Under the pieces are notes generated by a model. It had not been told where the DNA came from. It was given only the letters and a program-made list of their open reading frames with translations, and did not search any database. A DNA stretch of 63,714 nucleotides, the filler included, from Folioceros fuciformis (taxonomy: Eukaryota), in assembly GCA_049999805.1 (NCBI GenBank). It is 14 parts of 14 records of this genome, joined end to end, with 100 filler letters (N's around TTAATTAATTAA, not from the genome) between each part and the next. Parts side by side here need not be neighbours in the genome. Positions count along the whole stretch, not along the records: positions 55,682 to 61,531 come from JBNGIO010000871.1; 13 more parts are not named here. One strand, 5' to 3'. This document shows, one piece after another, positions 9,372-61,631 of this stretch (position 1 is the first letter of the stretch; each line of letters begins with the position of its first letter). A program made the translations under genes and the position numbers.

Positions 9372-9471
9372 NNNNNNNNNNNNNNNNNNNNNNNNNNNNN
9401 NNNNNNNNNNNNNNNTTAATTAATTAANNNNNNNNNNNNNNNNNNNNNNNNNNNNNNNNNNNNNNNNNNNN

Positions 9472-9950
9472 GAAAGATGTGGTTACCTGGACAGCTCTGA
9501 TTGCAGGATATGCCCAGCAAGGCATGGGCAAGAAGCTCTTAATCTCTACAATGGTATGCATTGTTGTCCCCAACTCTGTGACATATGTTAGTCTCCTGAA
9601 GGCATGTGCAAGCGTGGGCACCCCGGCTTGGGAGATGGGGAAGCGGCTACATGAGCAGATTAGAGAGCATGGCCATCAAGGTGATATGTTTGTAGTGAAC
9701 AGCTTGGTGAACATGAATGCAAAGTGTGGCAGCATAGAGGATGCCCGCACTGTGTTTGACGGACTCTGTGAAAAGAATGTGGTGACGTAGAGTGCCATAA
9801 CAGCTGGATATTCCCAGAAGGGCACAGGGCACCAAGCCCTTAGTCTTTACAGCGCTATGCATGAAGAAGGCATCATTGCACCCAATTCCGTGACGTTTGT
9901 GTGCCTCCTTCAGGCATGTGCAACTGTTGGTACTCCACGTCAAGTTCTTT
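9472..9950 (+). pseudogene. PLS-class PPR gene fragment, pseudogene
   Basis: DVVTWTALIAGYAQQG, VTYVSLLKACAS and NSLVNMNAKCGSIEDARTVFD motifs. TGG>TAG stop at 9788 and an internal deletion. Confidence 0.85.
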
Positions 9951-14365: not shown

Positions 14366-15710
14366 CGGGGAAAATGACGTATTCCTTTTTGGATGGGTAC
14401 TCAGGGTATAACTAGTTACATTTCCAGGAGAGCGATTGGCCGTTAACTGCCTTCACCACTGACTGGGGAACATACGCCTACAAGCGCAGCGCATTTGGAC
14501 TGACTGGAGCACCAGGGTCCTTCATGAGAACAATTGTCAAGATTTTTAGGGATTTCCTACGAGACTTTATGGAAGTATTCCTGGACGATTTCTGTGTGTT
14601 TGGGTCAGCGGGGGAGCATCTACAGCACCTAAGGAAATGCCTGGAGAGGTGTAGAGAGGCCAAGCTATGCCTCCACCCGGAAAAGTGTTATTTCGGGATG
14701 TCAGAAGATATCTTATTGGGGCATAGAATTTCGGCTAGAGGGATTGAGGTGGATCCTAACAAAGTAAAGATCATTAAAGCACTCCGATCACCGACCACGC
14801 TAAAGGAGATGAGGGGATTTCTTGGGATGTTTGGATACTACCGGAGGTTCATCAAGAACTTCGCTAAATGGGCAGCGCCGTTGACCAGGTTGTTAAGGAA
14901 GGAGGAGGAATGGGTATGGACATCAGCACGGGAGGATGCGTTTCAGGATCTCAGGACCACGCTTGTAACTGCCCCAACGCTCAAAGGACCCGATTGGAGC
15001 AAGAAATTCCACGTATATGTCGACGTCTCAGCCTTTGCCATTGGGGTCGTGCTCGACCAACGAGATGAGAAGAAGAGGGACCACCCGATTTATTATGCAG
15101 GGCGACAACTGACAGAGGCAGAACGAAAATACTCAACCACGGAACGGGAAGCCCTGGGAATGGTGTATTCAGTCCGGAAATTTCGGCACTATCTGCTATC
15201 CTACGAATTCGTGTTCCATGTGGATCATTTCGCGCTAAAGCATTTGATGAACAAGGTAGATATGTCCGGAAGGATAGCCAGGTGGGTTTTGCTGTTGCAG
15301 GAGTTCACCTTTACAGTGGAGACCCGCCAGGGGCGCAAGCACGTCAACGCCGATTACCTCTCACGACTGCAGTCGGAGGAGGTAAGCCAGGATCAGGAGG
15401 ATGAGTTTCCGGATGAAGCTTTGTTCACAGCAGAAATCGAGGGTGAAGCGGCTGTGCCCAATCGTAAGCGCCAGCAGAAGGGGGGCACAGCAGGAAATGA
15501 GAAGGGGAGGGTCAAGTTTGTTCGGCCCACCTATTTGGGATTAGCGGAATTCCTGGAATCGGGGGTCATTCCTACCGATGTATCGAGACAGCAGAGGCAA
15601 GCTTGGGTGCACTACACTCGACCTTTCACCCGCAGCGGAGGGGAGCTGTATCAAACAGGGCCGGACGGACGCCCACGTCTATGGATAACAGGAGAAAGGA
15701 TTGAGCAAGT
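14366..15710 (+). mobile_element. Ty3/gypsy RT-RNase H fragment
   Basis: VFLDDF, RGFLGMFGYYRRFI, YVDVSAFAIG, YSTTEREAL, DH.ALK, ARWVLLLQEF, NADYLSRL. Confidence 0.95.
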
Positions 15711-15811
15711 NNNNNNNNNNNNNNNNNNNNNNNNNNNNNNNNNNNNNNNNNNNNTTAATTAATTAANNNNNNNNNNNNNNNNNNNNNNNNNNNNNNNNNN
15801 NNNNNNNNNNT

Positions 15812-35036: not shown

Positions 35037-38000
35037 CAGAGATAGGTTAACTAACCAGGGTTAGTCCTAGACCTTTAAAAACCAATTTTGTAATACTTTG
35101 ATTATTATCTTTTTTAGATTTCATGCTTCCGCAACTTTGACATGGTATCAGAGCCATGGTCTTTAGCTTTTAAAAAAAAAAATTCCTTGGACCTTGAAAA
35201 TGCTGTTGAGTTATGGTGATGGCTTTTCTAGTCCTAGGTTGTTGATATTTGTGCATTTATAAGAATTGTCTATATATGCCTAGGCATATACATCTTATTT
35301 AGATGTATTGCTAGTTGTCTATTGTTGGAATTAGGAATTCAATGGGAAACCCATTTTTGTGATAAATGGTTCTGAATTGTTGGTTCAATGGCTTGAGGTG
35401 GGAGGCGGTCTTATGAGGATTTGCTGCCTTTGTTTTTGTGGAGACAACGTTGTTATCTTAGTAGGCCAGATCGAGTCAATAGACAGGGTGGCTACCTTGT
35501 GCGACAAGATTTCTTTGGTGACTCAGAGAGGTGGTATAATACTGGATTTCATTCAAGCAAAGCTGCTCACAAAAATTTCAGACACAAGACATTTGACGCC
35601 GTGCTATCGACACTAATTGATCGCCTCGAATCCATTGAGTTCCTCCTCAGGCGTGTGCTGAACAGCCAGACCAAACAAGAGTCATGGTTAGATTGTTTTG
35701 CAGTCAGAATTGCTAGATTGATTGAAGATTTTGGTGAAGCTAGCACCTTGGGTCAATCTTCATCAGCAATTCAAGATTGCCCGTCATGTGGATCTGGCAA
35801 GGCGCATCCTACATCACATGCACCCGTGCCCAGGCATCATCGCGACAAGCCTCCGCTGTGAAATTCGTGGCAGATTGGGAAGGACGCGTGTGCGGCCGGT
35901 GTCGTTTCGGCTCCTAGAATGTCTGCAGCCAAATGGACAGGGACGAACAGTTAGTTTACCGTTTCGTGTTCTAGGACTGGCTTGTCGTTTCGATAACTTA
36001 AGTTGTTGTTTTTTTTGGGTCATGCTATTGCCTACTGAAACTTAACATGGAACAGTGGAGTAAGTCTTACCTGATCTGGTTGTTGGTTGATGTTTTTGCC
36101 TCTGTGCTTGTTGGATGGATGAGGATGACTTAGATCTTGATTCCTTGTTCGAGTCCTTAACCCGCCTAGTCTTAGCTTCAGGTTATGTTGAGGATGTAGG
36201 CTTGGTTACTTGTCCTTCATAAGTCACAGTGGCAAGTCAGTTATCACAACCTCAGTTAGCTGCAGCCATGGCTAGCACGTATGTGTCTTCTCCTGTTCCC
36301 TCTATTGTTCCTAGTGGCTATGGAGGAGAATTCAAAGAAAAGGATCGGTTTGATGGAAAACCAACTAGATATGAGGGTTGGCGAGCTCGGATGAAGGCCT
36401 ACCTGGATGCGCAGGATGTGTGGGAGTATGTTAATGGTACCCTGCCTGATCCTCAACAAGATTCCAGCAACAGCCCCAGTCCAACCAATTGTTGATGAGA
36501 TTGCTATGTAGAACAAAGGCAATAAAATTGCTTTTGCTATTCTTCTATCTGGCCTAGATGAAACCACGGTGACAGAAGTTGAATACTTAGAGTCTACAGC
36601 AGCAGTGTGGAATTAGCTCAAAGAAACTTACCAGGTGCAGAATATCCTTACTCTGGTTGCTGCTAGGAATGAATTTCACTCTTTGAGGATGAAGAAAGGC
36701 GATTTTGTTGCTATATATATAAGTCACTTCAGGGTGTTAAGAGCTCAACTAGCTTCTGTGGGCAGTGTACTTACTGAAAATGAGGCAGTTGCTCAGTTGC
36801 TGTCCGGCCTTCCTCCCTCCTATCAGAGTTTTGTTTCAACCCAGAATGCTGCCTTGAGATTTTCTATAGCTGCTGTCTCTGCTGGGCAGGCACAAACACT
36901 TACATTTAGCAAGTTGACTGGTGCACTCTTTCAAGAAGAACAGTCCCGCCATAGACTTGGGGGACAGCATAAAAAAGCCAAGAGTGAGAGGGTGTTAGTT
37001 GCTACCAGAGGGAAACCATTTATGAAGGGCAAAGGAAAGAAGACACCTAGTGGCATAGGAGCTTCACTTACCAAGAGACAAGAAAATTGTCATTGGTGTC
37101 AGCTGCCTGGTAATTGGGAGAGAGATTGTCGCAAAAAGAAAGCTTGAGAGCCGAAGAAGGAGGTTCGGCCAGAGGCTCATGTCGCTGTGAAGGACAAGGG
37201 CTCTGCAACCACTTCTCGTAAGAGCAGCTCCACTATTCTTACAGTCTGTTTCACGTCCACCAGGGATTCTTCTTCTGCTTGGTTCATAGACTCTGGTGCT
37301 ACATCACATGTGTGCAATAATCATAGTCTATTCACCAACTTCACATCACAAACATCACCTCAGTTAGTGTATGTGGGGGATGCGAGAGGTGTAGATGTCA
37401 AGGGTTCAAGTACAGTTACCATTTCATTGTTGGAAGGTGAGGATATACAACTTGAAGGCGTTTTGTATGTACTTGCTATGTCCAAGAACCTGCTATCTGT
37501 TAGAGCAGCTACAAAATCAGGCTGCTATGGTTTTACCTTTGAGCATGGCAGTTGCTGCATGTACAAACTGTCAGCTCCTGGACTTTTCATAGCACGAGGA
37601 GAGCTTGTGGATGACTTGTATAGGTTGCATGTCAGTCCTTCTTCTCCCTTGGTGTATGCCTTGTCATCCTCCTTTGAAGCAATTATGTGGCACAGCAGGC
37701 TAGGACATGTCAACAAGGAAAAGCTCAACTTGATGGCTTCTCTAAATAGCTTCAAGGAGAAACTACATGCTTGTTTTAAGAATCTACCAGTGTGTAGCTC
37801 TTGTGTTCTTACTAAGCAGAAGGAGTTACCTTTTAAGAACAAGCAAGCACAAAGGGCAAAGTCAATTTTTGGAACTTGTTCATGCTAACCTTGCTGGAAA
37901 GCTTAAAGTCAAATCCTTGGGTGGTGCTGAATATTATCTTACCTTGACTGATGACTTCTCTCGATATACTTGGGCATTCCCGATCATACTTAAGAGTGAT

Positions 38001-41000
38001 GCCTTTGAGTGTATTGAGTCTTGGATTTCTTTGGATTAAAGACAGACTAGGAACCTCATCAAATGTCTTCGAATGGATCATGGTGGAGATTTTTCAGGCC
38101 ATAGATATGATGATCTGTTCCAATCACAAGGCATTATACATCAGTATTCCGTACCATACACTCAGCAACATAATGGAGTTGCAGAAAGAAAGAATCAAAC
38201 TTTAATGTGGATGATAAGAAGTATGCTCAATTGGGCTGGCTTACCAAAGAGGTTTAGGGAAGAAGCCATTTCAACAACAGCTTATATCCTGAATTGTGTG
38301 CTTACAGCAGCAGTTCTGGAAAAACCTCTCATGAAGTGTTCTGGAAGAAGAAACCAAGTCTTCTACATCTCAGGGTCTTCAGTTCTTTGGCATATGCATA
38401 TGTCCTTAAGCCATGCCGTCGTAAGCTTGATTATAGGGCAAAACCATATATTTTTCTAGGACATTCAGAGACTTCCAAAGCTTACAGGTTGCTTGATTCA
38501 CCTATTCAGAGAGTGGTGCTGGCGAGGAGTGTGGTGTTTGATGAACCTATTTCTCCTCGTTCAAGTCTTGCTACAGACCAGCTTGCTTCAGTGGGGGTTA
38601 ATTCAGAATCTGTTACTATGCCTGCTGAAGATAATTTCACTCCTGTTAGTTCAGCGACTAATCTTGATCCAATTGCACCTGTCCTTTCAGATGATGAGCT
38701 AAATGAGGACCTAGATGCTTCAGAAAGTTCTTCTTCTGGAGATGAAGACCAGACAGATTATGAGCCTCCAGTTGCTCTTCCTCCAGTTGAAGTCCCTGTT
38801 CAACTTGAACCTAGGTACCCTACATGTGACAGGCGCCCTAGGGAATAGTGGTATGAACCTCCATATCAGTCAATTGATTTTCGCCGCTCTCAAGCTCATG
38901 TTGTAGATTTGAGTGTACCTGAAGTACGACATGATCCCCAATCTTATGCTAAAGCATTTAATGGTCCTCATGAAGAAAAATGGAAGCTCTCTATTGTTGA
39001 TGAGTACAACTCACTCATTAAAAATCAGACTTGGGAATTGGTTGATATGCCACCAGGAAGAAAACCCATTAGTTGTAAGTGGGTCTTCAAAACTAAACTC
39101 AATGCTGATGGCACTATAGCCAGATATAAATCTAGGCTAGTAGCAAGGGGTTTCAGCCAAATACCAGGGATAGATTATGGTGATACCTTTTCTCCAGTGG
39201 TAAAACCCCCTTCCATTCGTATTTTGATGGCCTTGGCAACTGAACTTGATTTGGAGGTGCAGCAGATGGATGTCTACACAACATGTTTACATGGTGAGTT
39301 AGAGAAGACATTATACATGAATCAGCCTGAGGGCTTTGTGGACAAACAGTATCCACAGAAAGTTTGTAAGCTGCTCAAAACGATCTATGGTTTAAAACAG
39401 TCTCCTAGAGCTTGGTACAAGAGAATTATGAAGTACCTTAAACAGCTTGGTTTCCTACAGTCTCTTGCTGATATGAATGTGTTCTTCCTTCTGGCTGGTG
39501 CTCAGCTTGTCATCCTTGCGTTGTATGTGGATGACTGTGTGTAATTGAGTACCAACCTTGAGCAACTTGTCACTGTTGAAGAGATGTTGCGCCAAGAATT
39601 TGAGACGACATATCAAGGAGATCTTCAGTTTTGTTTGGGCATTCAGATTTTGAGAAATCGGTCAGCTGGCTTGATAACTATGCATTAGACTAAGTACTTG
39701 AAAGAAATTTTATGTCGTTTCAACTTACAGCATGCTTAGACCAGTTGCTACTCCCTCAGCAGTGGGGGTTAGGTTGACAGCTGAAGATCAGACCAGTGTT
39801 GACAAAGCTGAGATGGCAGCTGTCTCCTATGCCAAGGCAGTAGGTTGCCTCATTTTTCTCTCTAATTGGACTCGTCCAGATATCAATTACTTTGTCAGTG
39901 TTGTGTCTCAATTCTTGAAGCAACCTAGACGCATACGTTGGGTTGCTGTCAAACGGATTTACAGAGATTTGAAAGGCACAGTTTCCTATGGCCTACAATA
40001 TTCAACAAGTGGCAGTAAGAGGTTGGTACTTAACTCTTTTGCAGATGCTGATTGGGCCTCGGATACAGATTCTCGAAGGAGCCTTCCAGCCTACTGCTTC
40101 TTGCTGTCTTCTGCTGTGGTGAGTTGGAGCTGTAAGAAACAGACTTCTCTTGCTCTCTCATCAACTGAAGCCGAATGTAAAGCACTTATAGATGCATGCA
40201 AGGAGGTTGAGTGGGAAAGACAGTTTCTTGAATCAATTTAGCAGAAGCAAGAGGGTCCTACTAGATTGTTTTGTGACAACATGAGTGCAATAGCCCTTGT
40301 CTCGAATCCACGCTTTCATGCACATACCAAGCATATTGAGTTATACCATCACTATATACAAGATGCTGCAGAACGTGGAACTGTTAAGGTGGAGTATGTA
40401 AACACAAATGACAACACTGTAGACATTCTTACAAAAGGGTTGTTGAGGAGTCGCCATTTTCAACATGTTGCAGCTTTAGGGTTATGAGAGTTTACATAAT
40501 CCATGATAAATTACTTGTTTGGGTGTTGTCTGGTCTCTCCCCTATTTTGTAGTTCATCTAGTTTTTCTACTTATTGTCACAGGCTGATTGCCAAAAACAC
40601 AGAACCGTAGCTTCCTAACTTCTTCTGTTTGTTGGGGCTTGTTTGTGTCCTTGTAGTCCTGTCTTCTATGTCCGCGCTTGTGAGAAACCATGTAAGGGTG
40701 AGTATCCTAGTCAGGGGATGAAGCTGTCGTTCAGAAATCTAGACGTGACTAGTGAAGAAAAGTCTTACTTGCTTGCTGTTAGATCTCCTTGTGATATTTC
40801 CTACCACACACAGTGCACCTTCCATCTTGCCTAGCACAAACCCAGCATCGTTGTCTTTTGTATGGAAATCGTGGGGCTGCTTGAGCAGGTACATCTTCCT
40901 CAACAAAGGTCTGCTGATCATCTTCTTTAGCTCGCTGGGCTTCGAGAAGATTAGTTGCTTCTGCTATGTTGGTGAGGGCTACCTACAGCTGAGAGTTGAC

Positions 41001-48295: not shown

Positions 48296-50997
48296 GGCAG
48301 GCACAACCTTCTTGGCACTGCTCACACACATGTATTTGTAGCAAATCCGAACATGAAGAGAACGTCCATTTTCCCAAAGCTGGAATCCAGAGCTGCCCCG
48401 TAACATCTTTGGTATCAGAGCCTATGAGCTAGCCACCCTTAGATCTAGGATCAAGGTCGGTAGCCAGGATCTAGAGTCCGAGTTCGGGAGCACCTAGAGG
48501 TGGTAGCAGCAGCTTCCCAGCAACCATCACCAGCGACAGAGAACGGACCAACCAGGAGGAGGGCATAAACTAGGAGGAGTCTTGGAAATTTCTCCAAGAA
48601 AGGTAGCATGGACAATCGCACCTTGATCCTAGCAGAGGAACCAGCAATCTCCAGCACAAGCGAGGAAGAAGACCCATTCAAAGGGATTGGAGAGAGGGTG
48701 TGCCGCCGCGCACAACAGCACCTCCGTGATTCCTCAGGAGGCCATCTCCCCCTCATTCCACCACCGGGGCCAGAAATCGCAGAAGTGCCTGCTCCCTAGG
48801 AGTGCCAGAGCCGGGAACACACTCGCCGCCTCCTGGCTCGAGAGGAGGTCGAGAATCGGTTGCAGAGGTGCATCAAAGCAATGGTGAGGCGTCTGCAGAT
48901 GATGAGATATGAGCATTGGGAGCGCCAAAGAGGTCGATCGAGTGGAGAAGCTCAAGGGGGAGAAGAATACCTGTTCAAACCGAAGCCCCAGCTCGACAAG
49001 GAGTTACACCAGAAAATCAAGACCACAACGTTCGACGGAAGTGCCAAAGATGCTCAAAGTGTGCATGACTGGTTGGACAAACTCAACAAGTACCTTGTAG
49101 CCTCTAACAAAGACGATTTGCAAAAGATCCCGTTCTACGTGATGTTGCTTGAAGGATATGCCTACCATTGGTGGCGCTAGAGAGAAAAACAGGTGGACCT
49201 CGGCATGGAACTGCCTGTGTACTCCTGGCTAGTCCTCAAGTAGCTCTTCTTGGAACAGTTCCTACCAGTGAATCATCGTAGAGACTTGTATCAACAATTC
49301 CGAAAGATATTCCAATAAGGTAATGTACAAGAGTAATGTGATAAGTTTCTCCAACTCACACTTGACATGCCCAAGGTGGATGAGAAGCAAAAGATCGAGA
49401 AATTCATCGATGGACTGAAATTCGAAATGAGAGCGGATGTAAACCAAACGAACCTAGCAACTTTGGTCGAAGCGATGCGAGCAGCCATCAATTATGGTAT
49501 GAACAAATACAAACACTTCTCTTCCACATGTCCCTCTAAGCCTAAGTGGAACAAGACAGCGAACCGTCAGACAAGAAACCAACTTTCAAAATACTGACGG
49601 AGGAGGAGAAGAAGGGATACAATGAGAAGAGGAAATGTTTCACTTGCATGGCACAAGACCACGGTTCAAAGAACTGCCCTTTCCGCAAGGACTTCATCAG
49701 CTGGTTGAGAGAAACTGGGAAGACCACCAGAGGGAGCCAACCAAACCCAAACCCTCCCAAGAGCGGACATGCCATCAACACAACCGAGGTCAGTACCCAT
49801 GCCATAGCTGCAGTGATCTCAAGGAAGTCAAATCTCCAAGAGGGTTACCTGACCCACGTGCCCATCAAACTAGAGGTTGGTCTAGAAGGTGCCCGAGCCA
49901 CAGCCCTGCTAAACTCTGGTGCCAATCATCATTATGTGTCGAGATCCACTGATGAAAAGGTTGGCCTGCAGATCCGTACCTCAGGACATGTGTCCACAGT
50001 AGTGACAGCGTTGGGCGAGCATGAAACGAGCAAGGAAGAGTGGATTGATGCACTAGTCACCTTCCCAGGTGGCTTTGCAGAAGTCTTCAAGTTGACTGTA
50101 ATGCCGTCCTTGTGTCATGACATCATTATTGGTAAGCCCTGGCTGGCCAAGCATACCCACACATTAGACATAGACTAGTTGTCTAACATAGTAAGTCTTA
50201 CAAAGGGGGACAAGACATACACCATGCAGGGTGAACAGTATACCCCTGACAAACAGTTGTTTGCAATATCTGCTTTCAATGTAGCCATTGCCTCTGGCAG
50301 GTTCATGTACGTAGCTAAGCTGAAAAAAGTCTTACCCCTAGAAGGAACCCCAGAGCCCAGAGCTGTAGAAGCCAAGGCTCATGAGGAACTCCTACCACCC
50401 ACCATGAAGTCACAACTACAAGAGTTCGAAGATGTGTTCACCGAACCAGCAGAACTTCCCTCTAGACGTCCTATCGACCATGCCGTAGAGCTCCTGCCAG
50501 GCCATAAACCCATCAGTATCCAGCGATACTATACGTCAGCCACTGAAAACGAGGAAATAAAAAAACAAGTAGGCGAACTTCTACAGAAAGGGTTTGTATG
50601 CCCTTCAGTGTCCCCCTTCGGAGCCCTAGTCCTTCTTGTTGGCAAACCAGATGGTGGTGGTTGGCGACTATGCATTGACTATCGAGGACTCAACCGGGCC
50701 ACAGTCAGAAATGTCTACCAGATGCCGAGGATCGATGAGATCCTGGACCAACTTCACGGTGTAAAGTGGTTTACCAAGATTGATCTGAGATCCGGCTTCC
50801 ACCAGATCATGATCAAGGAAGGGGATGAGTCTAAAACCGCCTTCCACACAAGACATGGCCACTTCAAGTTCAGGGTCATGCCGTTTGGCTTGACAAACGC
50901 ACCTGCAACATTCCAATGTCTCATGCAAGACATCTTATGACCATTGTTGGGGCACGGCGTAGAAGTTTTCCTCGACGACATCCTCATATACACACCT
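48296..50997 (+). mobile_element. Ty3/gypsy chromovirus-like element 5' half: LTR end (48405), iMet PBS (48410-48422), gag, PR and RT; degenerate
   Basis: TGGTATCAGAGCC; gag LLEGYAYHWW and CFTC; PR ALLNSGANH (catalytic D>N); [45 protein letters not shown]. Confidence 0.93.
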
Positions 50998-55315: not shown

Positions 55316-55681
55316 TCTAAGACAAACAGCGTAATTAACCCGATCAAAACTGAGTGCTATCTGTTATCTTCTCTCAGCACCCTACAAAAGTGGATTGGTC
55401 AAGTTCTAAAACCAAAAGCCTATTTCAACTCATCAATCCACTCTTTATCAACTGCCTATGTTCCACCTCACCGTCTTTTTCTTCTTATACACAACTTCCT
55501 CCAAACCAACATATCGTTTTAGTCTATTTGTGCCCTCATTCTCAGCAAAAGTTTCCAACACTTGTTTCCGTTGAGGTTGTTNNNNNNNNNNNNNNNNNNN
55601 NNNNNNNNNNNNNNNNNNNNNNNNNTTAATTAATTAANNNNNNNNNNNNNNNNNNNNNNNNNNNNNNNNNNNNNNNNNNNN

Positions 55682-55865
55682 AAGGCTCCTGGAGTGACCA
55701 TGGTGCAATGCGCTCGAGGGAAGGCTCCCTCCAGGAAAGTGCGGAATGCACCTGATCGTCAACATGCTCTTGGTCACCAAAACGGACCATATAGCTGATG
55801 GGGTGGTATTGCTTCTCTACGGACTGGCGAAAGGCACCCGGGTGGATTGGGAGAAAGTGGTAGGC
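55682..55865 (+). mobile_element. Fragment of the gypsy accessory ORF family, abutting and truncating the PPR pseudogene
   Basis: LIVNMLLVTKTDHIADGVVLLLYGLAKGTRVDWEK aligns with 41890-41998. Confidence 0.7.
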
Positions 55866-57698
55866 TCAATGATGCTCAATAATAGGCTCGATGCCATGCT
55901 GTTGAGCCATGGAGTCATAGAGCTTGCGACCCTCCTGCACCAGCCCGTCGTGACTGCAAGCCACTAGAAGGCAAGTAAAAGTTGCATCATCAGGCTGAAT
56001 GCCAGCGACCATCATCTCGTCGAAGCAAGTTAGTGCCTGGTGAGCTTCATCACAAGAGCCACAGCCAGATATGAGGGCATTCCATGTCACCAGGTCCTTG
56101 GTCATTTAGCTGTCAAAAGCCTGACGTGCATCGTCCAGTTCACCACATTTTGCATACATGTCTACCAGGCAGTAGCCGAGCGATACGTTGTCTACCCGTC
56201 CACGTTCTACGACCTGTGAGTGCAGATGCCTGCCCATCTGTACCGCGCCAGTGAGGGCACAGGACTTGAGAAGGCAAGCAAAAGTGACATCGTTAGCGAC
56301 ACTCAGGCCCTCCTGCTCCATTCGTGCGTACACAATGAGCGCCTCGTGCCCGAGTCCTTGCTGGGCGTAGCCAGCAATGAGTGCAGTCCATGACACCACA
56401 TTTTTGGTGGCCAAGCTTTCAAACACACTACGTGCGTCTTCCAGTTGGCCACATTTTGCATACATGTCTACCAGGAAGGTGGCCACCAGCAAGTCACCAA
56501 GCAAGCCTCTTTCCACCATGCGTGCGTGGAGCTGCCTGCCGCTCTGCAAGTCACCAGTGCTTGCACAGGCCTTGAGAAGGTACGCGAAAGTAACAGTGTC
56601 AGCCAAAATGAGGCCCTCTTGCTCCATCTGAGCATAGAGAAGAAGCGCCTCTTAGCCCAGCCCCCTCGGCGTGCATAGCCGCCAATGAGGGCGGTCCATG
56701 TCACAACACCCTTTCTGGTCAGGCTGTCAAAGGCTTAGCGTGCATCCTGCAGCTCGCCACATTTTGCATACATGTGCACCAGGCAGTTTCCAACGAAAAC
56801 GTTGGAAAGAATGCCACTGCGCAGGACATCATGGTGCACTTTTCTGCCAGATTCCAGGTCAGCGGCAAATGCACAAGCTTGGAGGGCTGCAACAAAGACG
56901 TGAGCATCCGGCTTCACTCCTGACCTGCCCCATCTCATGGTACAGTTGCACGGCCTCACTAGCTTTCCCATGCTTAGCATATGCAGAGATTATGGAATAC
57001 CACATGAAGGCATTTGGTGTAGGCACCCTGGTGAACACATTCATGGGCTCCGGCAGACAACCTCCGCATGCGTACATGCGCAAGATATGGTTCCTCAAGT
57101 ACGCATCCGACTCGTACCCGAGTTTGACAGCGAGGTGATGAAGTCGTCGGCCCACAACCACGCCCTTCTTGGCTGCAAACAATTTTAGCACAGCGTATAA
57201 CAGAGAGTGAGAAGTAGCAGAATGTGTGTGCGCCAGAGACTCGAGAGCAGCAACGGCCTGAAAAAGATTCCCCTGCTGACATAAAATGGTGACGGTTCCA
57301 GGCGTTACCGATCCTGTAAGCCTCCTGGCCTCCTCAGGCTTATTCTTGTCCTTGAAGGTGAGATTGGAAGGAGAGGCACAATGAGGCCTGTGCGTGTCCA
57401 AGGAAAGCAGGTGGTGATCGACCCAACGTGGCTTCCACATGCTGTTTAACCACAGGACCTCGCCGGAACCCTTGCGACGGAAGTCAGGCGAACGGGAGCT
57501 CTTCTTGTCTCGTCTGTTGTCCCACCACATGGTAGGGTCCAGAAAGTATTGTTGCCACAAGAGCTCCTGCTGCTGCTCCTCCTGGCCACGGCCATCGGAA
57601 GAGTATCCTGGTCCACCCACACATTTTCTGGGGAGCGAAAGTGCTGTGCTCCTTACCCTGGTGAACCTGGAGGCTTGGTTGTTGGCCGGGTTTAGGGT
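55866..57698 (-). pseudogene. PDF-motif + PLS-PPR pseudogene, paralogue of 58393-61062
   Basis: PDF motif WQQYFLDPTMWWDNRRDKKSSRSPDFRRKGSGEVLWL (57396-57557), then P-L-S repeats up to L2. Frameshifts near 56930 and 56660, stops at 56735 and 56106. Cut before the E/DYW domains. Confidence 0.88.
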
Positions 57699-58392
57699 TT
57701 AGTCCATGGCGCGAGGGGAGCGGGTGCTTCTCGTACTCCTACGATTCCAGGTCCAGATCCAATTTCTTGGATCGACAAGGGGTCCAGCTGCCATACTTCA
57801 GGGATCGCTGCCGACACACCAGTGACACGACAGAGCATGCAGCCATGCCCCAGCCTTGATGTTGCCCTTGGACCACATCATCCGGGCAGGTTCCCAAGGC
57901 CCCAGACCAGCCCGGACCAGCCCAGCCCAGCCCCCGGAATCCCCGGAGGCCCTCAATGCAAACCAGTGAAGCCTGTAGCCTGCCAATCACAAGAATGAAG
58001 ATCGAGAGCACCACCAGTCAGTCCCCATCAACCACCATCCAGATAAGCCCACGGCGCCATACAGACCTGCCCTGCCGTCCTTTGCCAACAAGTGCGAAGG
58101 CGACCCCTTCGTTTCATGAAATAGTCCACCTTCGCATTCTTTTCTTGTGGGATGCAAGTACTGTCCTGCAAGTCAGGTTCGATAGGGGCCTCATGCTCGG
58201 TGTGGAAGAAGCACCGTCTTCCAAGATTCTGCAAGGCAGGCCATTTGGGGACTCCTTGTCTTAGATATGGAGGCCCGAGCTTGAGTGCTCGCTTTGCTTT
58301 TCAGCAGCTTGGCTTTACTGGCTTCGTCCTCGTGGAGTGTAGGACCTTCAAGCAACCCTGGCCTGGCTGTGGGCTTCGTGCGCGTACAGAGG

Positions 58393-61062
58393 ATGCGCTT
58401 GCGAGCGGCCTTTGTCTTGCCCATGCAACTCCAACAGCGCTCCCTGTGCGATGGCCACAGTGTGGCAACCGGATCCCATCCATTTTGGACCCACCAAATT
58501 GGTGTGTCCACTTACTCACTGTCAGGCATTGTAGTCTCAGGAGGAGCTCCTGCTGCCCTCAGCCTAGGGAGTCGGAGTCCACCCCTGGCAAACAAAGCCA
58601 TCGTAAGGAGCCCAATACTTCCAATTCCCGCGAAGTTTGTGGATGGGCATGGGTCTCCCAGCGACGCGCGTTGCCTGGGGCAGGCACACACATGGCAACT
58701 GTTTCTTCTGGAGCCCACCATGTGGTGGGATAGCAGACCAGAGAAGAAGCGCTCCCGTGTGCCTGACTTCCGTCGTCACGGGTCCCCTCAGCTGCTGTGC
58801 CTGAACAACATGCGTAAGCCACCTTGCCTTCATCAGCAGCAGCTGGTCTCCTTGGACCATGCTGCCTCTCCGTTCCAGTCCAGCTCTCCGGACCAGCCTA
58901 AACCTGGCAGGCGTGGGCAATCGCAAGTCACCGTCGTTACTGATGTCACCGTGAGGACGTTATGTCAGCAGGGGAAGCTTTCTGAGGCCGTTGGAGCGCT
59001 GGAGTCTCTTGCGCAGAAGGACTCTGCAATTTCGTACTCTCTCTTGTACACTCTGCTGAAACTGTGTACAGCTAACAAGGATTTGGTTGTAGGCCGTCGA
59101 CTTCATCGTCTCATTGCCAAACTTGGGTACGATTCCAGCTCATTCTTGGGGAACCATATCTTGCGCATGTATGCATGTGAAGGGAGGCTGCAGGAGGCCA
59201 TGGATGTGTTCACCAGGGTTCCCAAACCAAACGTCTTCATGTGGTTTTCCATAATTTCTGCACATGCTAAGCTCGGGAAACCTCACCAAGCCATACAACT
59301 TTACCATGAGATGCGTAGGTCAGACGTGAAGGTGGATGCTCACGTCTTCGTAGCTGCCCTTCAAGCCTGTGCACTCGCCGCTGACTTGGAATCTGGCAGG
59401 AGAGTGCACTGCGACGTGCTCCACAGTGGTATTCCTACTAACTTGTTTGTTGGCAACTGCCTCGTGGACATGTACGCTAAATGTGGTGAAGTGAAAGAGG
59501 CACGCCAGGTTTTTGACAGCATGGCCACGAAGGATGTGATCACATGGAATGCCCTGATTGCTGGGTATGCACGCCAAGGATTTGGCCAAGAGGCGCTTCT
59601 TGTGCATGCACAAATGGAGGAGGCGGGCCTCATGTTGGCTGATCGAGTTACTTTTGCTTGCCTTCTCAAGGCCTGTGGAAGCACTGGTGCCTTACAGAAG
59701 GGCATGCAATTGCACTCGCAGATGGTTGATAAAGGACTGCTGGATGATGTAATCCTGGGCACGTGCCTGGTGGACATGTATGTCAAATGTGGTGAACTGC
59801 AAGATGCACGCCAGCTTTTTGACACCTTGGCCTCGAAGGACGTGGTTACATGGACGGTGCTCATTGCTGGGTATGCACAGCAAGGACTCGGCCAAGAGTC
59901 GCTTCTTCTGTACGGACAGATGGAGGAGGCAGGCCCTATTTTGGCTAACCACGTTACTTTTGCTTGCCTTCTCAAGGCCTGTGCAAGCACTGGTGCCTTA
60001 CAGATGGGCAGGCATCTGCACTCACTGATTGTCAAAAGAGGGCTGCTGGGTATTGTGGTGTTGGGCACGTGCCTGGTGGACATGTATGCAAAATGTGGTG
60101 AACTGGAAGATGCACGCCGGGTTTTTGACACCATGGCCTCAAAGGATGTGGTGACATGGACCGCCCTGATATCTGGCTACGGCAATTGTGACGAAGGTCA
60201 TAAGGCACTAGCTTGCTTTGAGGAGATGTTAGTTGCTGGTGTTCAGCCTAATGATGCTACTTTTACTTGTCTTCTTGTAGCATGCAGTCACGAGGGACTG
60301 GTCCACGAGGGTCGCTTGCACTTCCATTCCATGGCTGAACAGTATGGCATTGAACCTGCTATTGAGCATTACGTTTGCATGGTCGATCTTCTCGGGCGTG
60401 CTGGCCATTTAGATGAGGCAGAGAAGATGCTATCAACGTGTGAGGGCCAAAGTAATGTTGTGGTCATGACCACTTTGCTGAATGCCTGCAAAAGTCACGG
60501 GGACATAGAGAGGGCACTGTGGTGTTTTGAAAGCATTGTTAGGCTGGATCCCCTCTGGGCGCCTGCGTATGTGCTCATGGCCAACGCGTATGCAGATGCA
60601 GGTAGATGGACCGATGTACACAGAGTTGAAACGCAAAGAAGGGTAGCAGGAGCTAACAAGTTGCCTGCAGTAGCCAGCATTGAGGTGAACAAGGCGGTAC
60701 ATAGATTTCTGGTTGGAGAAAGCAGAGGGAATATTTCGTGCAAGGTAGAGAGCACGAATGCACGTCTGAAGCAGGAAGGTGGCCACGTACCTCACACGAA
60801 ATTGGTGTTGAAGCCACTGTCTGAGAAGGAAAAGGAAGATGTTCTCTGTGGGCATGCTGAGAAACTAGCTCTTGCATTCGGTCTCTTGAACACTCCAAGT
60901 GGGACACCCCTGGTGATTACGAAGAACTTACGCATGTGCAGTGACTGCCACAGTTCCACGGAGATCATGTCAAGGCTTGAAGGCAGAGACATTGTTGTGA
61001 GGGATGGCTACCGCGTGCATCGATTCACAGCCGGTTGTTGCAGTTGTAAGGGTCGAGCGTGA
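58393..61062 (+). CDS. Intronless PLS-class PPR protein with N-terminal PDF motif and C-terminal DYW:KP (GRP-like) deaminase-fold domain; candidate organellar U-to-C editing factor
   Basis: First ATG at 58393 (889 aa). About 15 P/L/S repeats, then E1-E2, then KLPAVASIEV...GGHVP...LCGHAEKLA...KNLRMCSDCH...CSCKGRA. Confidence 0.93.
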   Translation: MRLRAAFVLPMQLQQRSLCDGHSVATGSHPFWTHQIGVSTYSLSGIVVSGGAPAALSLGSRSPPLANKAIVRSPILPIPAKFVDGHGSPSDARCLGQAHTWQLFLLEPTMWWDSRPEKKRSRVPDFRRHGSPQLLCLNNMRKPPCLHQQQLVSLDHAASPFQSSSPDQPKPGRRGQSQVTVVTDVTVRTLCQQGKLSEAVGALESLAQKDSAISYSLLYTLLKLCTANKDLVVGRRLHRLIAKLGYDSSSFLGNHILRMYACEGRLQEAMDVFTRVPKPNVFMWFSIISAHAKLGKPHQAIQLYHEMRRSDVKVDAHVFVAALQACALAADLESGRRVHCDVLHSGIPTNLFVGNCLVDMYAKCGEVKEARQVFDSMATKDVITWNALIAGYARQGFGQEALLVHAQMEEAGLMLADRVTFACLLKACGSTGALQKGMQLHSQMVDKGLLDDVILGTCLVDMYVKCGELQDARQLFDTLASKDVVTWTVLIAGYAQQGLGQESLLLYGQMEEAGPILANHVTFACLLKACASTGALQMGRHLHSLIVKRGLLGIVVLGTCLVDMYAKCGELEDARRVFDTMASKDVVTWTALISGYGNCDEGHKALACFEEMLVAGVQPNDATFTCLLVACSHEGLVHEGRLHFHSMAEQYGIEPAIEHYVCMVDLLGRAGHLDEAEKMLSTCEGQSNVVVMTTLLNACKSHGDIERALWCFESIVRLDPLWAPAYVLMANAYADAGRWTDVHRVETQRRVAGANKLPAVASIEVNKAVHRFLVGESRGNISCKVESTNARLKQEGGHVPHTKLVLKPLSEKEKEDVLCGHAEKLALAFGLLNTPSGTPLVITKNLRMCSDCHSSTEIMSRLEGRDIVVRDGYRVHRFTAGCCSCKGRA

Positions 61063-61077
61063 GAATGATAAAAAAGG

Positions 61078-61136
61078 GTCGCCAGTGCTCGATAGAAAGT
61101 GTCGCCAGTGCTCGATAGAAAGTGTCGCCAGTGCTC
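61078..61136. repeat. Tandem repeat, about 2.6 x 23 bp, just after the PPR stop codon
   Basis: GTCGCCAGTGCTCGATAGAAAGT units. Confidence 0.85.
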
Positions 61137-61631
61137 TTTCGGGTGATTGTGCTTGCTGGGAAATGGACATGGACAAGTCCATTTTTTTTCTCAACTGAGA
61201 CGTGGACATGGATAATCCTGGCCTCCTGTCAGCACAATAGAAAGAAGCAGGAACGAGTTGCACGGGGTGAAGTCCGTGCTCTCGTGTGGACTCGCTTGGG
61301 ATCTGGCCGGCTCTTGGAGGTCAGGGATGAGGACCCGAGTGCAGGCCTGGGATCTTGGCTCAGATCCTGTGGAATGGGAGCTGTGCTTGCTGGATTCAGG
61401 TTGCAGTGCTGCGAGAGAGCTGCTTCGCAAGTCTTTTCAGTTCTCCTGATGTGGCTATTGGAGCAAACTCGCCAACCTGCAAGGCACCTCCAGTGCTCTC
61501 CGTGTGAGAGTTGTTCTAGGTTGCCTGTCCANNNNNNNNNNNNNNNNNNNNNNNNNNNNNNNNNNNNNNNNNNNNTTAATTAATTAANNNNNNNNNNNNN
61601 NNNNNNNNNNNNNNNNNNNNNNNNNNNNNNN

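Follow-up and report, generated by a model that had tools for sequence, protein, structure and literature searches.

An N-terminal OSB-type PDF motif, probably weakened, on a PLS-class PPR-E-DYW protein of Folioceros fuciformis

An intact gene for a PLS-class pentatricopeptide repeat (PPR) protein carrying a PDF motif of the OSB type (OSB, organellar proteins that bind single-stranded DNA) in front of its repeat array was analysed in a 63,714-nucleotide stretch of Folioceros fuciformis DNA (GenBank assembly GCA_049999805.1), which consists of 14 parts of 14 records joined end to end and is referred to here as the window. All coordinates are those of the whole window; the gene lies in the part taken from JBNGIO010000871.1 (positions 55,682 to 61,531) and its protein was labelled P0001. 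By sequence comparison the motif is a genuine OSB-type PDF motif, and the best reading of its origin is inheritance from an old family of PDF plus PLS-PPR proteins, whose members come from one moss, one lycophyte and several ferns, and not a gain by this gene or by the DYW:KP class of PPR proteins. The copy in the intact gene is probably a weakened or vestigial module, a relic of that family, because two conserved Trp residues have been lost and acceleration is confined to the motif. Both modules were already known and the proteins stand in public records without comment.

The peptide WQLFLLEPTMWWDSRPEKKRSRVPDFRRHGSPQLLCL...LVSLD is found exactly at 58693-58857(+), within the stop-to-stop open reading frame (ORF) 58285-61062, and a second peptide, WQQYFLDPTMWWDNRRDKKSSRSPDFRRKGSGEVLWL..KPRWV..LLSLD, is found at 57396-57557(-) in a neighbouring copy of the gene; a six-frame pattern scan for WWD..PDF sites identified exactly these two in the window. 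A profile of the two copies (alignment A1) was scored against 1,835,955,588 proteins and yielded 502 matches at E<=1e-3, 90 of them at E<=1e-10 and 13 at E<=1e-30. All counts given here on database matches refer to the best 150 of these 502. Most of the 150 bear several PDF copies, 49 of them (24/75 + 25/75) match the Pfam SSB domain, and the source names among the matches include OSB1-like (Populus, Drosera) and OSB3-like (Lupinus, Chenopodium). In the reverse direction, a hidden Markov model (HMM) was built from 329 PDF instances, taken only from the 141 matches that were not on the phmmer list of matches to the PPR body, and was run against all 1346 stop-to-stop ORFs in the window, where it scored the neighbouring copy at 73.4 bits (E 7e-22), the intact gene at 44.1 bits (E 1e-12) and the next-best ORF at 7.9 bits (E 0.19). 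The preliminary description of this DNA had placed a PDF motif before the PLS-PPR array of an E-DYW protein and had proposed an HMM of such motifs as a check; profile matches in both directions, the reverse one obtained with non-PPR matches, bear out the motif at that place, between the presequence and the first PPR. A chance or low-complexity resemblance to PDF, for which nothing was found to speak, was rejected as next to impossible in view of these two E values, the score of the next ORF and the 502 forward matches.

The PDF motif, about 50 residues long, is reported in reviews to be sufficient for binding of single-stranded DNA (ssDNA) in AtOSB1, and OSB1 and OSB2 to favour ssDNA over double-stranded DNA or RNA (PMC6963530, PMC4166229). 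According to a review, the motif is conserved only in green plants (PMC4166229). The match of the intact gene to OSB proteins (PMC6963530, PMC4166229, PMC13393729) is reciprocal at the profile level and is limited to this motif: in OSB proteins the PDF motif is C-terminal and follows the OB fold, whereas the intact gene has a single N-terminal PDF motif followed by the PPR array, without an SSB/OB fold, and lacks two near-invariant Trp residues found in OSB-type motifs.

Structural comparison yielded no convincing relative of the motif among solved structures. An AlphaFold2 model of the motif, computed from a 33-row alignment, had a mean pLDDT of 75.7 and displayed a helix at residues 3-12, short strands at 17-19 and 32-34, and a helix at 51-63. 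A Foldseek search of the PDB with this model returned no match at E<=0.001, the best Z score obtained with VIA-align against 48,161 chains was 2.9, and the sequence profile matched, among PDB chains, only the OB-fold part of the OSB rows. An ESM Atlas search gave no usable match. Word-index protein searches with the motif regions returned nothing useful, and the same kind of search with the Adiantum protein P0077 found only a congener, which in both cases reflects the limit of the method and does not indicate absence. These blanks do not show the PDF fold to be a new one.

The intact gene occupies an uninterrupted frame of 925 codons (58285-61062(+)), in which the coding sequence, 890 residues long, was taken from the first in-frame ATG (ORF residue 36) to the stop (58390..61062). 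The putative organelle transit peptide at 58390..58692 was assigned by composition only: upstream of the PDF motif, the presequence stretch of 98 residues (ORF residues 36-133) contains 7 Arg and 2 Lys against 3 Asp and no Glu, and is rich in Ser, Ala, Gly, Pro and Leu, so that the protein is probably organelle-targeted. The degenerate PDF copy (58693..58857) is joined to the first PPR-like helix by a Ser/Pro/Gln-rich linker, delineated from the translation at 58858..58929. The PLS-type PPR array covers residues 216-737 (58930..60495), with Pfam matches to PPR in 10 stretches (PF01535, E 1.4e-67) and to PPR_2 in 8 stretches, and would hold about 15 repeats as judged from its length. It is followed by an E motif at residues 738-800 (60496..60684; PF20431, 39.5 bits) and by a KP-like deaminase domain of the DYW family at residues 833-923 (60781..61053; PF14432, 113.5 bits), in which HAE and CSDCH provide the HxE and CxxC motifs; repeats, E motif and deaminase domain together place the protein in the PLS-class PPR-E-DYW family. 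Residues 1-215 gave no Pfam-A match at E<=1, Pfam-A being without a model for the PDF motif, and P0001 as a whole gave no Pfam match to the SSB/OB fold (PF00436) at E<=1, which sets it outside the OSB family proper. The intact gene is a candidate organellar RNA-editing factor, because it encodes a probably organelle-targeted PLS-E-DYW-like protein.

The evidence for an old PDF-PPR family comes from the best 150 database matches, 9 of which also match the window's own PPR-DYW body in the phmmer search, while 10 (2/75 + 8/75) have a Pfam PPR match at E<=1e-3. Two of the latter, P0143 and P0111, are absent from the phmmer list, which brings the PDF-PPR proteins to at least 11 of the 150; P0098 has a weaker PPR match (E 0.0038), and P0128 has a cluster mate of 692 residues, P0182, with a PDF-PPR-E+ architecture. 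The family is represented in Ceratopteris richardii (P0129, P0112), Adiantum capillus-veneris (P0077, P0041), Adiantum nelumboides (P0168), Pteridium aquilinum (P0090 and P0151, both transcriptome ORFs), Diphasiastrum complanatum (P0123) and Sphagnum jensenii (P0143), and in the source records these proteins are labelled only as 'hypothetical' or 'pentatricopeptide repeat-containing'. Ferns and a lycophyte supply the nearest relatives with a named source. Together with P0084, the proteins from Adiantum, Ceratopteris, Pteridium, Diphasiastrum and Sphagnum share with the intact gene one to three N-terminal PDF motifs (three copies in P0004 and two in P0041), a short linker and a PLS-type array. 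P0084 shares the full architecture, from the PDF motif to a KP-like DYW domain, at 44-53% identity. It had been supposed that the fusion predates the local duplication that produced the two window copies; its occurrence in moss, lycophyte and ferns shows that it does so by far. The PPR-linked copies group together in a tree built from 153 motif instances, where they require 7 label changes compared with 18.2 on average after shuffling (none of 500 shuffles was as low), and as regards a single origin of these copies the 57-column tree would be compatible with either answer.

An association of the motif with DYW:KP ends in particular, for which the preliminary description had proposed a test, did not hold among these matches. 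A Pfam DYW domain is present in 1 of the 150 listed matches, P0084, which is likewise the only one among the 10 with Pfam PPR; the E motif is matched in 3 of the 150, the majority of the PDF-PPR relatives have E/E+ motifs at their ends and lack a DYW domain, and P0182 has a PG-type box (KKPGKAYIEV). Relatives other than P0084 combine PDF motifs of 66-89 bits with mostly E/E+ ends, whereas the intact gene combines a motif of 44.1 bits with a KP-like DYW domain. The preliminary description had known of no functional account of the architecture, and likewise no description of a PDF motif joined to PPR proteins was found in the literature searched, which did not extend to supplements and some earlier primary papers, and within it the only co-occurrences of OSB with DYW and of PDF with PPR were unrelated. 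The main text of a 2026 kingdom-wide study of editing factors contains neither 'OSB' nor 'PDF', and a 2026 OSB census demanded both an OB fold and a PDF motif, so that PDF-PPR proteins would by design not be listed there.

DYW:KP proteins, from hornworts, lycophytes and ferns, are candidate factors for U-to-C editing. They are described as having KP instead of PG as the pair in the N-terminal box, Ala or Cys where otherwise Ser follows the zinc-binding His, a C-terminal triplet that varies and a conserved active-site Lys (PMC11845758). The DYW end of the intact gene was compared by alignment with the solved PG-type chains 9kfx, 7w86 and 7o4e and with P0084. In the box NKLPAVASIEV, Leu and not Lys precedes Pro, one substitution away from the KP form, and the Pro is followed by Ala instead of Gly, as in the KKPAVAGIEV of P0084. 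The zinc-binding His is followed by Ala (GHAEKLA, compared with HSEKLA in 9kfx, 7w86 and 7o4e), the C-terminus ends in a non-DYW triplet (...CSCKGRA, compared with ...CRCGGRP in P0084), and the Lys of KNLRMCSDCH aligns to the Lys of KNLRVCGDCH in the solved DYW chains. From the published description, and not from an alignment with KP6, we infer that this Lys is equivalent to Lys88 of KP6. By sequence the deaminase domain is therefore KP-like in three of the four features, and the earlier assignment of a DYW:KP C-terminus stands for the HAE motif, the non-DYW end and the Lys and fails for the defining pair, which reads LP. The PLS array, E motif, DYW-family domain, HAE, non-DYW end, Lys of KNLR and CxxCH are all common to DYW:KP proteins and the intact gene; the differences are the pair itself and the N-terminal PDF motif, which is outside the architecture described for DYW:KP proteins in the literature searched.

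The motif of the intact gene is the lowest-scoring of 20 PPR-linked PDF instances and, apart from 0.3%, all of the 330 scored training-set domains score higher, the training median being 79 bits. The two DYW-bearing proteins have the two lowest scores (53.8 bits for P0084 and 44.1 bits for the intact gene), with other PPR-linked copies at 66-89 bits; in most of the PDF-PPR proteins conservation of the motif equals that in OSB proteins. Residue conservation was assessed in an alignment of 33 motifs (A2), the signature residues of PDF being W, P, WWD, R, K, PDF, LW, P.W and L. Of 15 invariant or near-invariant positions, 13 are retained in the intact gene, and both losses are Trp to Cys replacements in columns where at least 90% of the rows have Trp, by a TGC codon at 58798..58800(+) in the 'LWL' position (column W42) and by another at 58825..58827(+) in the 'P.WV' position (column W51). 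Within the KP-like lineage the motif is the part with the least conservation: between the intact gene and P0084, identity is 40.7% in the motif and 60.3% in the PPR-DYW body, compared with 86.0% in the motif, 80.0% in the PPR body and 71.4% in the linker for an Adiantum pair, and with 73.7%, 71.5% and 42.9%, respectively, for an Adiantum/Pteridium pair.

Comparison with the neighbouring copy, which is a pseudogene, shows faster change of the motif in the intact gene. The two copies from the window group as sisters in the motif tree (SH-aLRT 96), and the end branch measures 1.04 in the intact gene but 0 in the pseudogene. A relative-rate count over 54 motif sites with P0084 as outgroup found 12 changes unique to the intact gene and 2 unique to the pseudogene (binomial p 0.013), while elsewhere the counts were even, at 12 against 11 (residues 192-343) and 23 against 22 (residues 431-696). 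The pairwise ratio of nonsynonymous to synonymous rates (dN/dS) between the two copies stood at 0.50 for the motif, at 0.33 and 0.27 for the PPR parts and at 1.09 for the linker (23 codons). Were almost the whole change in the motif attributed to the intact-gene branch, its omega would be near 1, a rough inference made outside any fitted model.

Several points weigh against reading the motif as a decayed relic of a family with mostly E/E+ ends. W..P..WWD.R..K and PDF are still present among the 13 kept positions and, together with a motif dN/dS of 0.50 that is lower than the 1.09 of the linker, may indicate some constraint and some function left. The acceleration could also represent adaptation to a new ligand rather than decay, alternatives that 54 codons cannot separate. 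The outgroup P0084 has a degenerate motif itself, and 20 of the 54 motif sites fall into the uninformative 'other' class of the relative-rate count. The PPR parts of the intact gene and of the pseudogene show equal amino-acid change, so that the open frame and the dN/dS of 0.27-0.33 are all that shows constraint on the intact gene. Furthermore, the HMM training set was collected via the window's own profile and is not fully independent of it, and the share of DYW domains among PDF-PPR proteins rests on the best 150 matches, with the other 352 outside the count.

The preliminary description had suggested that a working PDF module might tether a DYW:KP factor to nucleoid ssDNA, transcription bubbles or R-loops for co-transcriptional U-to-C editing. 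The sufficiency of PDF for ssDNA binding in AtOSB1 (PMC6963530, PMC4166229), the WWD..R..K..PDF core kept by the intact gene and the PDF-derived segment retained in a second KP-like protein, P0084, are consistent with this proposal. It appears unlikely, since both DYW-bearing members stand at the bottom of the 20 PPR-linked scores, in P0084 'PDF' has lost its Pro and 'WWD' one of its Trp residues, the intact gene lacks two near-invariant Trp residues and is accelerated in the motif only, and the well-conserved PDF copies belong to E/E+ type or PG-box proteins and not to KP proteins. A little less improbable, and still not expected, is a retargeting of PDF in the PPR context, by which it would contact RNA 5' of the PPR footprint or bind a protein partner (for example to recruit a trans-acting deaminase to E/E+ members) and would have become dispensable or changed in the DYW-bearing intact gene. 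With only one DYW protein among the 10 listed matches with Pfam PPR, the motif is nevertheless conserved like the PPR body, its decay is seen in the DYW-bearing lineage, and accessory RNA-binding domains are known on PPR proteins, such as the N-terminal RRM of maize PPR4 (PMC9459714). However, OSB1 and OSB2 are reported to bind RNA more weakly than ssDNA (PMC4166229), and the sample is small, with one KP-like and one PG-box homologue.

A further question is whether the motif belongs to the mature protein at all, or is lost through a downstream translation start or through removal with the transit peptide. The start codon of the intact gene was assigned by inference, the ATG codons at residues 36 and 47 are followed by the next one only at residue 153, inside the motif, and the motif begins about 98 residues past the first ATG, compared with residue 3-79 in most relatives. 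Such a loss is very improbable given that public gene models and the two Pteridium transcriptome ORFs put motif and PPR array into one frame, that the frame of the intact gene is open from 58285 and that the motif of the relatives is under purifying selection as protein sequence. On balance we favour the reading of the intact gene's motif as a weakened or vestigial inheritance from the PDF-PPR family.

PPR arrays bind RNA with their N-terminal repeats toward the 5' side. A PDF motif before the array would, in the PDF-PPR family, add a sequence-independent contact with single-stranded nucleic acid, and because of this orientation the module would be located at the 5' end of the RNA segment that the array binds; alternatively, it may tie the protein to nucleoid DNA. 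The conservation of PDF in E/E+ members suggests that the motif does something there. In the intact gene, the motif would have been under relaxed constraint since the local duplication and would presumably have lost nucleic-acid binding, leaving target choice and catalysis to the PPR array and the DYW domain. A wider view, tentative and somewhat doubtful, is that the PDF plus PLS-PPR proteins of mosses, lycophytes and ferns are a class of organellar RNA-processing factors, old and so far without a description, in which PDF physically couples site-specific editing to nucleoid or transcribed ssDNA, the intact gene being a late, partly decayed member with residual tethering. The nearest known arrangement is that of maize PPR4, which likewise joins a sequence-specific array to a general nucleic-acid-binding module; there the module is an RRM and the protein a P-type splicing factor, whereas the intact gene has PDF and a PLS-type array, and no homology is implied (PMC9459714).

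The usual description of PLS-class editing factors has PPR repeats between a transit peptide and E/DYW ends. A DNA-binding motif conserved before the array, from Sphagnum to ferns, would if true be an unrecognised module of this family and would hint at a direct link of organelle DNA with RNA processing. The locus offers a natural contrast between an eroded motif on an intact DYW gene and a near-canonical motif on a dead gene, and for the engineering of KP-type U-to-C editors the data suggest that the motif can be done without and is no hidden requirement. It is the family-level observation that is worth pursuing, the intact gene itself being a decayed example.

The pseudogene (55866..57698(-), delineated by three-frame translation) lies head to head with the intact gene, about 1.1 kb apart, and comprises the near-canonical PDF motif at 57396..57557 and PLS-PPR sequence. 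It had been described as a neighbouring paralogue with a more canonical motif, which is correct for the motif (73.4 against 44.1 bits) and not for the gene: an in-frame ATG upstream of the motif is absent, the frame shifts twice (near 56930 and near 56700), in-frame stops are present at 56859-56861, 56735-56737, 56106-56108 and 55866-55868, and no E or DYW part was found before the N run at 55582. Contigs of related copies are short of one base at 56929/56930, which fits an insertion in the window copy at the first frameshift.

Contigs from four public sequencing runs, in which depth is not copy number, were aligned to the locus. In the best of these, X1, contigs cover the pseudogene and intergenic stretches with zero differences, so that this run looks like DNA from the same genome or one very close to it. 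In the three other runs, contigs accumulate over the PPR body and the pseudogene motif with 90-95% identity. On the pseudogene PDF stretch (57446-57639; place 57547), 19-60 contigs per run were aligned at >=90% identity, and almost none were aligned on the corresponding stretch of the intact gene's motif (58610-58803). By these alignments, pseudogene-like PDF-bearing PPR sequences appear to form a multi-copy family in several organisms, in which the copy of the intact gene is an outlier.

Elsewhere in the window, a third PPR fragment at 9473-9931(+) adjoins the N run 9372-9471 and shares 46-48% identity with residues 416-671 of the intact gene; no PDF motif was found near it. Three broken ORFs of long terminal repeat (LTR) retrotransposons were identified, at 14416-15762(+) with reverse transcriptase (RT) and RNase H, at 36617-40241(+) with a copia-type gag, a pre-integrase domain and RVT_2, and at 49546-50940(+) with an aspartyl protease and RT. 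Rich in repeats and poor in genes, the window has the look of a large plant genome. Its 1144 N letters occur as 26 runs of exactly 44, arranged in 13 pairs 12 bases apart, and look like masking and not like assembly gaps.

Some of the PDF-bearing proteins recovered by the profile search have other unusual architectures. With P0013 and its cluster mates, a protein of 730 residues was recovered that contains 8 PDF-like stretches and has the dinoflagellate Effrenium voratum as its named source. The Coptis chinensis gene model P0054 combines an OSB-like N-terminus and three PDF motifs with a kinesin motor domain (Pfam Kinesin, E 1.8e-86), a joining that may be a gene-model fusion artefact. One member of alignment A4, which holds 75 PDF-bearing proteins, has in addition a Pfam match to PTS_2-RNA (Tpt1/KptA RNA 2'-phosphotransferase) with an E value of 1.1e-5. 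P0085, P0134 and P0139, from ENA/Logan contigs, are short proteins (179-186 residues) with a C-terminal PDF motif and N-terminal parts unlike those of OSB or PPR proteins.

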